From the IMG/VR virus record IMGVR_UViG_3300011559_000001, positions 246,883 to 310,882 of that record: a DNA stretch of 64,000 nt; one strand, 5' to 3'. Each line of letters begins with the position of its first letter. Positions within the stretch are counted from its first letter, which is position 1. Shown piece by piece: positions 56,134 through 64,000 of the stretch. The translations under genes and the position numbers were made by a program. The notes beneath the pieces are model-generated. The model saw only the letters and a list, made by a program, of their open reading frames with translations, did no database searches and was not told where the DNA came from. The stretch comes from a virus (Duplodnaviria > Caudoviricetes).

Positions 56134-56397
56134 CATCTCCTTCCTAGACCGTTGGCTGCAAAGCTGAGAAGCACGGCGTACGCCATCCGCCGGAGTGAAG
56201 TGTCTAGGCCGGGAGTTGGCAAATCAGAGTGTAGCTGCGGGTGCAGACTCTGAGGGTCCTGACTTAAAGCAAGCGTGTCGCCAGTCAGCGACATAACTAA
56301 CCCTGCCCTAAACCCGCCCTTCGGGGCGGGTGTTTTTATACCTTAGGTGGTCTGGAGAGGATTCGAAAACAATCTAACTTCCTAAAGGTGTAAGACA

Positions 56398-57048
56398 ATG
56401 CGTAAGATCCCCGTTGTATTTGTGATGGACTTCGATACCGAACAAGTAACGCCGGCTGTCAAGCCGGGTTGTGAGTGGGTGGTTGAAGGGGAAGGTATCG
56501 CCACTCTCAAGGTGGACGGTTCTGCAGCCCGCTATCATGAAGGGAAACTCTGGAAGCGCTTTGACCGTAAGCTCAACAAGCAAGCCCAGTGGCTCTTCGA
56601 TAACGACCGCCTGCCCGCGGTTGAGGAGCACCACTTCCGTGCCAAGCCTGACGGTTTTGTACCGTGTGAGGCAACGCCGGATCCGGTCACGTTCCACTGG
56701 CCGGGCTGGGTGCCCGTGTCGGCCGACAACCCGGCTGACAAGTATCATCTGGAAGCCCTGAGTAACCTGAAGGCTCCCTTGAGCGAAGGACAGACCTACG
56801 AGCTCGTGGGTCCGACCCTGGCCGGCAATCCCTACGAACTCACGACTCACCAGTTGGTGGCTCACGGTGATCCGTTGGAGATTGCTGATCGCAGTTTCGA
56901 AGGCTTGCGTCAGTTTCTGACGGCAACCTACATTGAAGGGGTGGTGTTCCATCACCCGGACGGTCGTATGGCGAAGCTGCGTCGCAAGGACTTCAAGTTG
57001 TTCTGGGTGAAGGAAGATACCCGGGTGAGCAAGCGTAAGAAGCGTTGA
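56398..57048 (+). CDS. RNA ligase (nucleotidyltransferase; Rnl2/DUF5565-like)
   Basis: Motif I KVDG, YELVGP, EGVV, AKLRRKDF. Confidence 0.8.
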   Translation: MRKIPVVFVMDFDTEQVTPAVKPGCEWVVEGEGIATLKVDGSAARYHEGKLWKRFDRKLNKQAQWLFDNDRLPAVEEHHFRAKPDGFVPCEATPDPVTFHWPGWVPVSADNPADKYHLEALSNLKAPLSEGQTYELVGPTLAGNPYELTTHQLVAHGDPLEIADRSFEGLRQFLTATYIEGVVFHHPDGRMAKLRRKDFKLFWVKEDTRVSKRKKR

Positions 57049-57112
57049 CGGAACACACCCCCACCCTTCGGGGTGGGGGCTTTATGCTGTCTTTCATAAC
57101 CAAGGAGTTTGT

Positions 57113-57541: not shown

Positions 57542-58627
57542 ATGGACACGCAACACGATTACTCGGTTTTCATTGGACGCTTCGAACCTTTCCACAACGG
57601 CCACTTGGCCGTGGCCCGCAAGGCGCTGGAGCTGGGCAAGAAGCTGATCGTCATCATCGGTACCGCCAACCGCCCGCGCACGATCAAGAACCCCTGGGTT
57701 GTTGAAGAACGCGCGGTCATGATCCGTTCGGCCCTGGCCGAATACGGTGATCGGGTCATCATCGGACAGGTGCGTGATCACCTGTACAACGAAGACCTGT
57801 GGCTTGCTGATGTGCAGCGCGTGGTGCGCGATGCGGTGGCTTTCGACAAAGAAGCGCCCGAAAAGCCCATCATCCGCATGATCGGTCAGTCCAAGGACGA
57901 CTCGAGTTATTACCTCAAGAAGTTCCCGCAATGGCCGGTGGTCGACGTACAGCACACCGCTGTGCTCTCGGCAACGGATCTGCGCCGGTACCTCTTCGAG
58001 GCCCGCAAGGTGGAGACTCACGGTGGCATGATGTACATCCGTGCCAACGTCCCGGCGTCCACCTACGCCATGATCGATGCTTTCCGTCACAGCTCGCCGG
58101 ATTACGACCAGCTGCTGCGGGAGTACGATTACATCAAGGACTACAAGGCTGGTTGGGCTGGTTCTCCGCACGAAGTGTCCTTCAACACGGTCGACTCTGT
58201 CGTGACGTGTGCTGGTCACATCTTGCTGGTCAAGCGCAAGCCCGAACCCGGTAAGGGCCTGTGGGCACTGCCCGGTGGCTTCATCAAGCCGCACCAGACG
58301 GCGCTGAAAGCGTCCCTGGCCGAGCTGCGTGAAGAAACCCGTCTGAAGGTTCCGGAAAAGGTGATCATCGGTTCGCTGCGCAATCAGCGACTGTACGATC
58401 ATCCCGAACGCAGTCTGCGTGGCCGGACGTTTACCCAAACGTTCCATTACGCGCTGGACTTTGATGAACGACCCAAGGTCCGTGGTGGCGACGACGCCAA
58501 AGAAGCAAGGTGGTTCCCCTTCAGCGAAGCCCTGGAAATGGGCGCCCGGCTGTTTGAAGACCACTTGGACATCTTCGAGAACGAGCTGGGCATGCATGCT
58601 CCGCCGCTCCCCTCGTTGGTGTTCTAA
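57542..58627 (+). CDS. nadM: bifunctional NMN adenylyltransferase / Nudix hydrolase (NadM-Nudix)
   Basis: GRFEPFHNGH, SATDLR, Nudix box LPGGF..ELREET, GGDDA. Confidence 0.95.
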   Translation: MDTQHDYSVFIGRFEPFHNGHLAVARKALELGKKLIVIIGTANRPRTIKNPWVVEERAVMIRSALAEYGDRVIIGQVRDHLYNEDLWLADVQRVVRDAVAFDKEAPEKPIIRMIGQSKDDSSYYLKKFPQWPVVDVQHTAVLSATDLRRYLFEARKVETHGGMMYIRANVPASTYAMIDAFRHSSPDYDQLLREYDYIKDYKAGWAGSPHEVSFNTVDSVVTCAGHILLVKRKPEPGKGLWALPGGFIKPHQTALKASLAELREETRLKVPEKVIIGSLRNQRLYDHPERSLRGRTFTQTFHYALDFDERPKVRGGDDAKEARWFPFSEALEMGARLFEDHLDIFENELGMHAPPLPSLVF

Positions 58628-58700
58628 GTAACACCGTTCCAAAACCCAACGCAACATCACGTGAATCAGCCGGAAGGGTAGACCTCCGGTTCACACCGAC

Positions 58701-60107
58701 ATGAAGGAACTTCAGTCAATGTACATCGAAAACCCGATCCTCAACACCGACAGCTACAAGGCCAGCCATTGGGTCCAGTACCCGCCGAACACGGACGATA
58801 CGTTCTTCTACGCAGAGTCCCGTGGTGGTGAGTACGACCAGACGGTGTTCTTCGGCCTGCAGGCCATCCTCAAGGCCAACCTGCGACCGATCACCCACGC
58901 CGATGTCAACGAAGCTGCGATGTTGTTCGCAGCGCATGGCGAGCCGTTCAACGTGGACGGTTGGCGCCATATCGTGGACAAGCACAACGGTCGTCTACCC
59001 CTGCGCATCCGCGCCGTGGCCGAGGGTACGGTGGTGCCGACGCACAACGCGTTGATCACCGTCCAGCCCACCGATCCGAAGTGCTATTGGCTGCCCTCGT
59101 ATCTGGAACCCATCCTGATGCGTTCGTGGTACCCCACCACTGTTGCAACGGTCAGCTGGGCGTGCAAGCGGGTCATCCGCTCGTACCTTGAGCAGACCAG
59201 CGACATCCCCGACGACGTCCTACCCTTCAAGCTCCACGACTTCGGCGCGCGCGGCGTGTCGAGCACCGAGAGCTCGGGCCTGGGCGGCATGGCACACCTG
59301 GTGAACTTCCAGGGCACGGACACCGTGCTCGGCCTGGTGTACGCCTCGCGCTTCTACAAGGCCGGCATGGCCGGCTTCTCGGTCCCTGCGGCTGAGCATG
59401 CCACCATTACCCCGTGGGGTCGTGATGGCGAAGTGGAAGCCTACCGCAACATGCTGAAGCAATTCGGCCGTGAAGGCGGTATCGTCTCGGTGGTCTCGGA
59501 CAGCTACGACATCTACCACGCTATTAGCGAGCACTGGGGTAAAACCCTTCGCGAAGACGTGATCAACTCGGGGGCAACCCTGGTGATCCGTCCGGACTCG
59601 GGCGATCCGGTGGAAGTCGTGCTGACGTGCTTGGAACTGATCGACGCTGCCTTTGGCAGTACGGTCAATGCCAAGGGCTTCAAGGTCCTCAACCACGTGC
59701 GTGTGCTGCAAGGCGACGGCATCGATCCGGCCATGCTGGAGGCAATCCTCCAGGCCAGTACTGAGCTGGGTTACTCCGCTGAGAACTTGGTCTTCGGCAT
59801 GGGCGGCGGGCTGCTCCAGAAGGTCAACCGTGATACGCAGAAGTTCGCACTCAAGTGCTCGGCTGCGCGCGTCAATGGCGAATGGATCGACGTCTACAAG
59901 GACCCGATTACCGATAGCGGCAAGCGCTCCAAGCGTGGCCGTCTGTCGCTGTTCCGCCACCGTGAATACGGCACCTTCCAGACCTTCCGCACTGACGGCC
60001 GTGATCACATCCCGGCCGGCTATGATGATGCGATGGTGACTGTGTGGGCCAACGGTCAGTTCGTGCAGGAATGGACCTTTGATCAGGTCCGTGCCAACGC
60101 AGGCTGA
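58701..60107 (+). CDS. nadV: nicotinamide phosphoribosyltransferase
   Basis: TDSYKASH, LHDFGARG, PAAEH, SVVSDSYD, IRPDSGDP, QGDG, GMGGGLLQKVNRDT. Confidence 0.95.
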   Translation: MKELQSMYIENPILNTDSYKASHWVQYPPNTDDTFFYAESRGGEYDQTVFFGLQAILKANLRPITHADVNEAAMLFAAHGEPFNVDGWRHIVDKHNGRLPLRIRAVAEGTVVPTHNALITVQPTDPKCYWLPSYLEPILMRSWYPTTVATVSWACKRVIRSYLEQTSDIPDDVLPFKLHDFGARGVSSTESSGLGGMAHLVNFQGTDTVLGLVYASRFYKAGMAGFSVPAAEHATITPWGRDGEVEAYRNMLKQFGREGGIVSVVSDSYDIYHAISEHWGKTLREDVINSGATLVIRPDSGDPVEVVLTCLELIDAAFGSTVNAKGFKVLNHVRVLQGDGIDPAMLEAILQASTELGYSAENLVFGMGGGLLQKVNRDTQKFALKCSAARVNGEWIDVYKDPITDSGKRSKRGRLSLFRHREYGTFQTFRTDGRDHIPAGYDDAMVTVWANGQFVQEWTFDQVRANAG

Positions 60108-62335: not shown

Positions 62336-62411
62336 GGGTCGGTAGCTCAATTGGCAGAGCGGCGAGCTCCAAATTCGTCGGTTGCGGGTTCAAGTCCTTC
62401 CCGGCCCGCCA
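62336..62411 (+). tRNA. tRNA-Trp(CCA)
   Basis: GCGAG-CTCCAAA-TTCGT, GCCA; imperfect T-stem. Confidence 0.85.
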
Positions 62412-62420
62412 CGTTTCAAC

Positions 62421-62496
62421 ACAGCGTTCATCTAGAGGCCTAGGATCGCGCACTTTCACTGCGCTAACACGGGTTCGAATCCCGTACGCTGTACCA
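62421..62496 (+). tRNA. tRNA-Glu(TTC)
   Basis: GCGCA-CTTTCAC-TGCGC, ACCA. Confidence 0.9.
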
Positions 62497-62511
62497 CCTC
62501 AAGGAAGTGCA

Positions 62512-62874
62512 ATGTTCCTCAAGCATTACCAAGTCAAAGCCCCCACGGGGCTGACGCCGGAGCAGGAGCAGTTCTGGAACGAGGAGTTCCTGACCGCCCT
62601 TGGCCGTGCCAGTGGCTTCAGTGTCACCGTCAACGAACGCGGTGTCCAGTCGATGGTCGTGTCCTTCACTCTGAACGAGCGTGAGGCTGTCGCAGCCGGT
62701 GAGTGGTTCATCACCAAGCTGATGATGGACCCGACCACGAAGGAAACGGGTCCGCTGTGGAACAAGAAGGAAAACCTGCCCAAGCTGATCACCGCTGCAG
62801 GCGAGTATTCGTTCTTCGTGTCCATGCTCGCCGACGGTCAGTGGTACCTCCAGATCTACCCGGTAGTGTTCTAA
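62512..62874 (+). CDS. hypothetical protein within the tRNA array
   Basis: AAGGA RBS; coding-like codon usage. Confidence 0.6.
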   Translation: MFLKHYQVKAPTGLTPEQEQFWNEEFLTALGRASGFSVTVNERGVQSMVVSFTLNEREAVAAGEWFITKLMMDPTTKETGPLWNKKENLPKLITAAGEYSFFVSMLADGQWYLQIYPVVF

Positions 62875-62881
62875 GTTTCGT

Positions 62882-62957
62882 TGTGGATTAGCTCAGTTGG
62901 TAGAGCGTTCCCCTGATAAGGGAAAGGTCGATGGTTCGAGTCCATTATCCGCAACCA
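62882..62957 (+). tRNA. tRNA-Ile(GAT)
   Basis: TTCCC-CTGATAA-GGGAA, ACCA. Confidence 0.9.
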
Positions 62958-62964
62958 GTTTTAC

Positions 62965-63038
62965 GGCCCTTGTGTAGACGCCCAGCGGACGGTGCACTCT
63001 GCGAAGGCGAGACGACGACGGTCGACTAAGGGCCACCA
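62965..63038 (+). ncRNA. CCA-ended RNA with an acceptor-like stem but no D/T arms
   Basis: GGCCCTTG/TAAGGGCC followed by ACCA; no TTCRA. Confidence 0.55.
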
Positions 63039-63043
63039 TTTCA

Positions 63044-63131
63044 GGGCATGTGCGTGAGCGGTTTAAACGACCGGGGTGCTAACCCGACGATCCTTCGGGA
63101 TCCGTAGGTTCAAATCCTACCATGTCCGCCA
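63044..63131 (+). tRNA. tRNA-Ser(GCT)
   Basis: CGGG-GTGCTAA-CCCG, variable arm GATCC-TTCG-GGATC, GCCA. Confidence 0.85.
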
Positions 63132-63136
63132 TCTTC

Positions 63137-63222
63137 GTGGAGATCTAGGTATCGAGTCCTAGCAGCCGGTGACCTTCGGGGGCGCTGACTGTAGCTCAAT
63201 AGAGAGCGCTGCGATCCCCCGC
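63137..63222 (+). ncRNA. permuted tRNA mimic (YrlA/Y RNA-like)
   Basis: Order is T-arm (CTAGG-TATCGAGT-CCTAG), UUCG-closed acceptor-like stem, D-arm (TA-GCTC-AATAGA-GAGC), terminal stem. Confidence 0.65.
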
Positions 63223-63281
63223 ACTGTCGTAGAGCTGCAAGGCTTCGGCCGGACTCTACTTCTTTGCGGGTATTACATTCA

Positions 63282-63358
63282 CGCGTCTTAGCTCAGCTGG
63301 TTAGAGCAAGAGAATCATAATCTCTTTGTCCGGGGTTCGAATCCCTGAGACGCGACCA
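63282..63358 (+). tRNA. tRNA-CAT (elongator Met or Ile2)
   Basis: AGAGA-ATCATAA-TCTCT, ACCA. Confidence 0.85.
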
Positions 63359-63360
63359 AA

Positions 63361-63502
63361 ACAAGAACCACAATCACGGACATCGGTCCGTGACCCGCAC
63401 AGGCCTCGGCAGGGTGGAAAAATCTGGAGTATTGTCATCCGGTACTCTGGTGACTGGCAAGCCGCCCACGCAAGTGGGCTAGTCAGCCGCTGTGGTTCTT
63501 GT
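63361..63502 (+). ncRNA. multibranch structured RNA
   Basis: Perfect 12-bp closing stem ACAAGAACCACA/TGTGGTTCTTGT with at least three internal hairpins. Confidence 0.6.
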
Positions 63503-63673
63503 CTGTCCCTGAGTCAAGGCAGGTAGTCCTTGGACGGAAGCATGCTCCGTATTGTCCAGAGTGAAAGGGCAGACGTTAAACCGCTGGAGGCGAACCAAGC
63601 CGACCGGGGATACGCATGTAAGTGTGGGTTGGTAGTGACCGCCTTCGGGCGGTTGCGTTTAGTGTACTAAGGT

Positions 63674-63747
63674 GTGGCCGTAGCTCAGCTGGTAAGAGCG
63701 CTGCACTGTGAATGCGGAGGTCGTGGGTTCAAGTCCCACCGGACACC
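63674..63747 (+). tRNA. atypical tRNA-His(GTG)
   Basis: CTGCA-CTGTGAA-TGCGG; no encoded CCA, no G-1, one acceptor mismatch. Confidence 0.7.
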
Positions 63748-63771
63748 CCTTAGTGCATTTGAGTTTCTGTA

Positions 63772-63925
63772 GCGATAGTAGCTCAGTTGGTAGAGTGTCC
63801 GTCCCGATCCCTTAACTCAGTCAGGTAGAGTACCGGGCCAATACCCCGGGAGTCATCGGTTCAAATCCGATAGGGGTCACCATCCAAACGGAAGGTCGCG
63901 AGTTCGATACTCGCCTATCGCTCCA
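63772..63925 (+). tRNA. interrupted tRNA-Gly(TCC) with a tRNA inserted in its anticodon loop
   Basis: GCGATAG/CTATCGC followed by TCCA, D and T arms, TCCGT/ACGGA anticodon stem enclosing an 85-nt loop. Confidence 0.8.
63806..63882 (+). tRNA. nested tRNA-like element (loop CCAATAC, nominal anticodon AAT)
   Basis: GATCCCT/AGGGGTC followed by ACCA, ACTC/GAGT D-stem, CCGGG/CCCGG, ATCGG-TTCAAAT-CCGAT. Confidence 0.8.
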
Positions 63926-63935
63926 TCGTTTCACC

Positions 63936-64000
63936 GGACAAGTGGTCGAGAGGCTAAAGACAGTGAGCACGGCCTTCGGGACACTCACGGTTCAGGGACA
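63936..64000 (+). ncRNA. tRNA-like RNA with an enlarged anticodon loop (truncated at window end)
   Basis: GGACAAG-TG-GTCGAGAGGCTAAAGAC D-arm; GTGAG/CTCAC stem around a 16-nt loop containing CC-TTCG-GG. Confidence 0.55.

Follow-up and report, generated by a model that had tools for sequence, protein, structure and literature searches.

A complete tRNA nested in the anticodon loop of a Gly-type tRNA of a jumbo phage suggests that one tRNA may serve as the intron of another

Introduction

Can one tRNA be the intron of another, and which enzymes would remove it? The question is raised by a locus in the IMG/VR virus record of a Xanthomonas-type jumbo phage (310,882 bp, a 311-kb record; 58.5% GC). 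The final 64 kb of this record, 64,000 nt, is the whole stretch of DNA analysed here and is referred to as the window. Near its end, a complete CCA-ended tRNA lies inside the anticodon loop of a Gly-type tRNA. An earlier note on this DNA read the inner tRNA as an intron whose excision would leave two paired Gly halves to be joined by a phage RNA ligase, or else the composite as a decoy. The nested tRNA is confirmed as a reproducible sequence, and its anatomy and surroundings suggest that the inner tRNA may be an intron of the outer one, taken out by the usual enzymes of tRNA trimming together with an RNA ligase of the phage.

Anatomy of the nested unit

The outer tRNA is divided into two halves that retain every helix of a tRNA (Table 1). 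The acceptor stem, GCGATAG (63772-63778) with CTATCGC (63915-63921), has seven of seven pairs. The D arm (63781-63796) is canonical. The anticodon stem, TCCGT (63798-63802) with ACGGA (63888-63892), has five of five pairs, the T arm is GCGAG-TTCGATA-CTCGC (63898-63914), and the 3' end is formed by U73 and CCA (63922-63925). All 21 outer stem pairs (7 acceptor, 4 D, 5 anticodon, and 5 T) are intact, and the tertiary positions are canonical. Two remnants make up the anticodon loop: CCC (63803-63805) and TCCAA (63883-63887), the latter corresponding to U34, C35, C36, A37, and A38. Every element of this anatomy listed in the earlier note is present where the note had placed it.

The identity set of E. 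coli GlyRS comprises G1-C72, C2-G71, G3-C70, U73, C35, and C36. If TCC (63883-63885) is the anticodon, the outer tRNA carries the full set, in accordance with the Gly-type identity assigned to it earlier. Folded together, the two outer halves retain their acceptor, D, and T helices (-27.9 kcal/mol). In the nearest-neighbour minimum-energy fold, a local hairpin takes the place of the outer anticodon stem (-53.7 versus -47.2 kcal/mol), which is not taken as counter-evidence to the cloverleaf.

The interruption between the halves is itself a tRNA. ARAGORN calls the inner segment tRNA-Ile(AAT), and Rfam RF00005 matches it with 58.9 bits against a gathering score of 29, bearing out the 77-nt cloverleaf with its own ACCA that the earlier note had recognized. 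The inner tRNA is inserted base-exactly from G1 to A76, with neither flanking DNA nor a spacer: the insert is closed by the acceptor stem of the inner tRNA, whose A-CCA end abuts TCCAA. The GTTTC spacer typical of the array lies upstream of the outer tRNA, and the outer unit keeps the GTTTC spacers of the array. A signature of two T-loops about 43 nt apart (T-loop, 12 nt, CCA, 11-19 nt, T-loop) is present a single time in the window and in 0 of 100 shuffles, and 20 of the 23 T-arm-like hairpins in the genome fall within the tRNA array.

Neither loop of the nested unit has the U33 of a canonical anticodon loop (7 nt, with U33 and a purine at position 37). The inner loop, CCAAUAC, has C33 and A37, and the inner tRNA is the sole one without U33 among the 14 tRNAs of the phage. 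The outer tRNA is not a continuous gene with a 7-nt loop, being interrupted by 77 nt, and ARAGORN never reports it on the native sequence, the intron option included. When the halves are joined in silico by exact excision, ARAGORN calls a tRNA with an 8-nt loop, CCCUCCAA, read 'ctcc'; after removal of one further C, it calls tRNA-Gly(UCC). A 7-nt outer loop is obtained only by a one-base offset on either side, as CCUCCAA if one C is trimmed or as CCCCCAA (anticodon CCC) if the 3' cut is shifted downstream by one base. The outer tRNA would have C or A at position 33, and U33 is impossible in every parse. By comparison, U33 is present in 26 of the 26 other tRNAs of the phage and of its closest described relative, Xanthomonas phage RTH11 (312 kb; 82-91% identical over most of the tRNA array). 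Both reservations in the earlier note, an 8-nt loop upon exact excision and the lack of U33 in both loops, are correct.

Table 1 Coordinates of the features discussed in the text (window positions unless another record is given)
Feature	Location	Strand	Description	Basis
Outer tRNA, 5' half	63772-63805	+	34 nt: GCGATAG, D arm, TCCGT, loop remnant CCC	Sequence
Inner complete tRNA	63806-63882	+	77 nt; loop CCAAUAC (AAU, C33); discriminator A and CCA	ARAGORN; Rfam RF00005
Outer tRNA, 3' half	63883-63925	+	43 nt: TCCAA, ACGGA, variable loop, T arm, CTATCGC, U73, CCA	
RLIG1-family ATP-dependent RNA ligase (predicted)	56398-57048	+	216 aa; KVDG motif; candidate sealing enzyme	
Class-II-like tRNA	63936-64000, continuing L003 59-169		GGACAAG...CTTGTCC-A-CCT	Rfam tRNA, 39.2 bits
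'Two-headed' RNA	L003 181-325; RTH11 orthologue L001 3419-3568		Gly-type tRNA and circularly permuted tRNA	
Gly(GCC)-type tRNA with insert	L003 344-478; RTH11 L001 3270-3407		59-nt insert between nt 31 and 32	
tRNA-Asn(GUU) nested in tRNA-Lys(UUU)	L065 6111-6262		IMGVR_UViG_3300013947_000465	

Reproducibility of the nested sequence

The nested unit occupies the stretch about 75-230 nt before the record end, which follows its last base by 75 nt. The record is labelled "linear" in IMG/VR, yet its final 122 nt (window 63879-64000) are repeated at record bases 2-123. Because the ends overlap by 122 nt, the genome is circular. Record base 1 is T and mismatches window 63878, which is C; other assemblies continue through the closure.

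Since the record end is close and the overlap begins within the ACCA of the inner tRNA, we sought independent assemblies. The flanking 112-aa protein leads to a 36-kb Logan contig (SRR1749349) and to one contig each of the GenBank metagenomes GCA_013565735.1 and GCA_013565755.1. In all three, the 154-nt unit is contig-internal and 100% identical. Two of the contigs match at 100% over a 2,178-nt stretch that spans both junctions and the circular closure of the record; the third, which begins at window 63613, likewise covers the junctions as well as the closure and shows a single mismatch, located outside the composite. Although the position of the unit, the start of the overlap, and the mismatched base 1 could point to an assembly chimera near the record end as the maker of the nesting, such a chimera is very unlikely, indeed scarcely credible, because three other assemblies from other pipelines hold the identical 154 nt internally and read through the closure; the assembly artefact that would have undone the earlier note is thereby countered.

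A predicted RNA ligase encoded upstream of the array

The earlier note pointed to an RNA ligase at 56398 as the joining enzyme. The protein encoded there matches Pfam PF17720 (E 4.4e-16; 59.1 bits against a cut-off of 25), PHROG 14301 'RNA ligase' (E 8e-53), and PDB 9c6l, a viral RLIG1 (RNA ligase 1; E 1.7e-7), whose KTDG lysine aligns with the KVDG motif of the phage protein. By predicted activity, the gene is thus an RNA ligase, as noted, and it belongs to the RLIG1 family. RLIG1 and its bacterial and viral homologues join 5'-P to 3'-OH ends and seal nicks in tRNA anticodon loops, and human RLIG1 prefers the 5' side of the loop, at nicks 31/32 and 32/33 (PMC11494293).

Family searches find no Pnk-type kinase, RtcB, or splicing endonuclease (PF01974) in the phage, and the control genomes (archaea for PF01974) are positive. 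Likewise, no CCA-adding enzyme, RNase Z, or Ro/TROVE protein (Rsr, PF05731) is found in the phage, with positive control genomes. Since the first three enzymes and RNase Z are not found, hydrolytic nicks with 3'-OH and 5'-P ends would be the expected substrates of the ligase.

The ligase cassette (window ~56294-57057) is absent from RTH11, where its flanks are 28 nt apart (68830-68858) rather than ~760 nt, and no ligase homologue is found in RTH11. Ligase and nested unit are both present in this phage and both absent in RTH11, a co-occurrence seen in a single genome pair. Just downstream of the cassette is a ~34-nt motif (window 57058-57091) that has at least seven copies in RTH11, perhaps as a repeat with a role in regulation or recombination. 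The region from the ligase to the array includes window 57542-60107, which encodes an NMNAT-Nudix fusion and NAMPT (NAD salvage) and is 88% identical to RTH11.

The tRNA array and its remodelled units

Four tRNA-shaped genes in a row have rebuilt anticodon arms, the nested unit being the foremost; downstream of the four are a normal tRNA-Gly(UCC), a tRNA-Cys, and a tRNA-Asn. Across the array (window 62400-64000, L003 1-1320), most tRNA units are preceded, at a distance of 3-14 nt, by a GTTTC motif that may be a processing or spacing signal. Upstream of the nested unit, a tRNA-His (window 63674-63749) has a G.A mismatch in its acceptor stem and a CCCC end instead of CCA, is conserved in RTH11, and is itself preceded by ~300 nt of structured non-coding sequence (window 63361-63661) that is 91% identical to RTH11.

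In the class-II-like tRNA that follows the nested unit, the 16 nt within the anticodon stem, GTGAG/CTCAC, contain a cUUCGg hairpin. The ARAGORN call for this tRNA, a dubious 'Val(cac) i16', requires the intron option, and RTH11 has a normal tRNA-Ser(GGA) at the site. In the 'two-headed' RNA, the anticodon stem of the Gly-type tRNA is stacked on the anticodon stem of the permuted tRNA, with linkers of 1 nt and 6 nt. The inner acceptor helix is closed by G-CCA and then G1 in this phage and by a plain loop in RTH11, and both stems covary between the two phages through compensatory changes. ARAGORN reads the same locus as 'Ile(UAU) with canonical 37/38 intron'; we reject this call as a coincidence because that parse yields no canonical loop in the RTH11 orthologue and the two-stem reading covaries. 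The insert of the Gly(GCC)-type tRNA contains a T-arm-like hairpin, an 8-bp helix, and a capping hairpin. The 7-nt loop of this tRNA, UUGCCAA, is intact on the 3' side in the present phage; in RTH11, the orthologue is without a canonical loop, and its acceptor stem is weakened.

G1C2G3, U73, CCA, and an xCC-AA that adjoins the 3' strand of the anticodon stem are common to the normal tRNA-Gly(UCC) and the three Gly-type scaffolds. In RTH11, the permuted and 59-nt units have orthologues, and the nested unit has none. Since the neighbouring composites are kept in RTH11 without ligase or canonical loops, at least part of the array is probably non-decoding, tRNA-shaped RNA rather than a set of decoders.

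The phage already encodes Gly(UCC), ~570 nt downstream of the nested unit, and Ile(GAU). Its codon use per thousand is 8.9 for GGA, 7.6 for GGG, and 7.9 for AUU; supplementary tRNAs for these rare codons are plausible, not compelling.

Relatives and other nested tRNAs

The nested unit is not found anywhere in the whole RTH11 record, the plain tRNA-Ser(GGA) sitting at its site, and no carrier is found among GenBank phages. Searches of IMG/VR by the conserved upstream 32-mer or the flanking 112-aa protein return no relative carrying the unit, and a search by the ligase leads to no more than one gene of 39% identity, which lies at a contig end without tRNAs. For a 17-mer that spans the 3' junction, there are four chance matches, with no further similarity. 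These searches give no divergent relative with the nested arrangement, and all four assemblies are identical; therefore, the unit yields no covariation. The earlier note had proposed to look for the same nesting, with covariation, in related phages; these searches return no such case.

A census of IMG/VR for the pattern T-loop..CCA..T-loop listed 80 loci, for which excision offsets of 0-3 nt were tried. Among the matches listed, 29 have a tRNA ending at the CCA, and only L065, a 6.7-kb contig, yields an outer tRNA after excision. A double D-arm pattern recovers L065 again, together with L130. In L065, tRNA-Lys(UUU) is split exactly at 36/37 by tRNA-Asn(GUU), excision restores the loop CUUUUAA, and both tRNAs are canonical. 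As in the present unit, a complete CCA-ended tRNA is placed base-exactly in an anticodon loop within a phage tRNA array. Unlike the present unit, L065 has its insert at 36/37, canonical loops, and an outer tRNA without encoded CCA, and the two have no sequence similarity. The nested design is not unique to this phage.

The L065 contig also encodes a DUF2828/DUF7788 protein (L065 539-1993). L130 was rejected as a nested tRNA: it consists of a tRNA 5' fragment and a second tRNA 5' half (L130 2020-2140, - strand), the loop of which, CTTTT, runs into a long insert that may be a group I intron.

A possible splicing route

RNase P cuts 5' of an acceptor/T-arm stack with a 3' RCCA, so that the upstream piece ends in a 3'-OH; after a cut by RNase Z/BN or RNase E, the downstream piece begins with a 5'-phosphate. 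With these enzymes, the following route can be proposed. The 154-nt unit would be made as one transcript within the phage tRNA array, and host RNase P would cut 5' of G63806, leaving an outer 5' half that ends in CCC-3'OH. A second hydrolytic cut at or just past the inner CCA, by RNase Z/BN or by RNase E with trimming, would free the 77-nt tRNA(AAU), after which the outer 3' half would begin with a 5'-P. The outer halves would be held by 7 acceptor and 5 anticodon-stem base pairs, and the nick directly 5' of U34, the wobble base, would be sealed by the phage RLIG1-type ligase. The sealed product would be a Gly-type tRNA with the loop CCCUCCAA, or with a 7-nt loop if one base is trimmed. Since maturation of the inner tRNA would leave 3'-OH and 5'-P, the ends would suit RLIG1, and no healing enzyme or Pnk would be needed. 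We infer every processing step of this route, which is built on what is observed: the anatomy, a sequence that is reproducible, and the family to which the ligase belongs.

Several findings argue for splicing. The insert runs exactly from G1 to A76 without a spacer, while the GTTTC spacers stay with the outer unit. No mismatch breaks the outer helices, and the joined halves pass as a tRNA in ARAGORN. The phage encodes a predicted RLIG1 ligase, and both it and the nested unit are missing from RTH11, where the flanks are 82-91% identical. The independent nesting in L065 restores CUUUUAA exactly. In addition, the intron of a Lak megaphage tRNA-Thr 'may itself encode a tRNA' (PMC6784885).

Other findings argue against splicing. 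The product loop has 8 nt, with C or A at outer position 33 and C33 in the inner loop, versus U33 in every one of the other tRNAs compared. A normal tRNA-Gly(UCC) is already present a short way downstream. For the 3' cut, RNase Z/BN and RNase E are no more than candidates. The co-occurrence of ligase and unit comes from one genome pair, and the four identical assemblies provide no covariation. The neighbouring composites survive in ligase-free RTH11, and the array may serve something other than decoding.

On balance, we tentatively take it that RNase P and a 3' cut free the inner tRNA and that the ligase reseals the outer one, the inner tRNA being the intron. We hold somewhat more tentatively the general form of this proposal, in which a phage splices tRNA without ribozyme or splicing endonuclease, the maturation of the tRNA intron making both cuts and an RLIG1-type ligase closing the gap. 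The intron-and-ligation reading of the earlier note is thus partly supported: the anatomy, the RLIG1 ligase, the joint absence from RTH11, and L065 speak for it, and the non-canonical product loop and the lack of a divergent carrier speak against it. As an interpretation of sequence, it is chemically coherent and has circumstantial support.

Alternative explanations

The composite may instead function as a whole. Intact, or nicked by RNase P and held together, it would be a two-domain, non-decoding, tRNA-shaped RNA that keeps a chargeable Gly-type acceptor end and could, for example, bind or draw away a host defence aimed at tRNAs or a tRNA-binding enzyme. It heads the run of four units with rebuilt anticodon arms; two of these units are found in RTH11, with compensatory changes in both stems, no canonical loops, and no ligase. 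U33 is missing from both loops of the nested unit, and all three Gly-type scaffolds keep U73 and the xCC-AA by the 3' stem strand. Two papers describe phage tRNAs as countering tRNA-cleaving defences (PMC10264068, PMC11555353), which is in keeping with such a role. However, no target is known, no Rsr/TROVE partner is found in the phage, the Rfam score for YrlA is far under threshold, and the nested unit is not conserved in RTH11. Moreover, the inner tRNA has all that RNase P requires, so the intact composite is unlikely to last. We regard a mimic as doubtful; the decoy alternative of the earlier note, of which it is a form, gains some weight from the remodelled neighbours kept in ligase-free RTH11.

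Alternatively, only the inner tRNA matters. The outer Gly-type body would then present the inner tRNA to RNase P and stabilize the precursor, and its halves would be discarded, or kept as a nicked non-decoding tRNA, and never ligated. Insertion of an RNA in the anticodon arm of a tRNA is a known stabilizing approach in bacteria (the tRNA-scaffold method). The inner segment scores as a full tRNA with both ARAGORN and Rfam, whereas the outer product, with an 8-nt loop and no U33, would duplicate the normal tRNA-Gly(UCC). However, the 13 other tRNAs of the array need no scaffold, and the inner tRNA, with C33, is itself non-canonical. The perfectly kept outer helices and Gly identity set and the co-occurring ligase also speak against a mere carrier. 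Both parts of this explanation, a presenting outer body and halves that are never ligated, are unlikely.

The nesting could also be a neutral accident, in which a tRNA gene, or the cDNA of a mature CCA-ended tRNA, recently killed a redundant tRNA-Gly paralogue, with no selection. It is confined to one lineage in the searches of GenBank phages, RTH11, and IMG/VR, it is redundant with the normal tRNA-Gly(UCC), and its loops are non-canonical. An accident is nevertheless improbable in view of the base-exact insert (G1-A76, zero flanking DNA), the 0 mismatches in 21 outer stem pairs, the same design with a perfect restored loop in the unrelated L065, and the co-occurrence of the ligase with the unit.

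Comparison with known systems

The closest parallel is with Lak megaphages, in which 'enigmatic' tRNA introns have been described and no pathway proposed (Devoto et al. 2019, PMC6784885, Fig. 4). There, as here, a phage tRNA is interrupted in the anticodon region by a tRNA-shaped insert far smaller than self-splicing introns. The genomes differ, Prevotella megaphages of 26% GC there and a Xanthomonas-type jumbo phage of 58.5% GC here. The present insert also differs in being a full 77-nt CCA-ended tRNA, in leaving 8 loop bases without U33, and in having an RLIG1 gene nearby. The nested unit belongs with these barely described tRNA-shaped inserts in the tRNA genes of large phages, and is unusual in that group for its full-length CCA-ended inner tRNA, its non-canonical loops, its linked RLIG1, and a relative without both unit and ligase.

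In T4 tRNA repair, PrrC cuts, Pnkp heals, and Rnl1 seals. The splicing route proposed here would resemble the last step only, in that a nick 5' of the wobble base would be sealed by a phage ATP-dependent 5'-3' RNA ligase. Unlike in T4, the break would be programmed by gene architecture, its ends would be hydrolytic 3'-OH/5'-P with no need for Pnkp, and the ligase is RLIG1-type. Of the T4 Pnk/Rnl1 model invoked in the earlier note, the phage ligase therefore stands, as an RLIG1-type enzyme and not as Rnl1, and the Pnk-type kinase family has no match.

Bulge-helix-bulge introns and the permuted and split tRNAs of archaea and red algae likewise involve an anticodon-loop insert, removal by proteins with ligation (proposed here), and rearranged genes. 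Unlike bulge-helix-bulge introns, the insert is at 33/34 rather than 37/38, and the host is bacterial. We reject a bulge-helix-bulge intron, as the junctions flank a 7-bp acceptor stem rather than such a motif and PF01974 and RtcB are absent.

Group I tRNA introns of bacteria and phages are also sited in the anticodon loop of a bacterial-type tRNA gene. They have a conserved catalytic core, are longer than ~200 nt, and match an Rfam intron model. The present insert is a 77-nt cloverleaf with no such core, and an Rfam search of the region gives only tRNA matches. A group I intron is therefore rejected, and the insert cannot self-splice by group I chemistry.

YrlA and other bacterial Y RNAs contain tRNA-shaped modules in a larger non-coding RNA that may be substrates for tRNA enzymes (PMC4201824, Chen et al. 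2014). The likeness is relevant mainly to the neighbouring permuted units, since the nested insert is not permuted. A YrlA or Y RNA is rejected: the best RF02553 match, which lies elsewhere in the array, reaches 29.8 bits where the gathering score is 69, and PF05731 is absent.

Implications

If it proves to be a mimic, the composite would join a cluster of remodelled tRNA bodies whose possible targets are host defences directed at tRNAs. If the splicing route holds, one nested gene would give two tRNAs, and maturation of the outer one would be conditional on a phage enzyme, the ligase. The pathway would be a third way of splicing tRNA, after self-splicing introns and endonuclease/RtcB splicing, and would be assembled wholly from universal tRNA end-processing enzymes and a ligase. 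Tools for finding tRNAs would then systematically miss genes of large phages, as the outer tRNA is missed by ARAGORN. It would also provide a natural substrate for the widespread, functionally obscure RLIG1 ligases of phages and bacteria.
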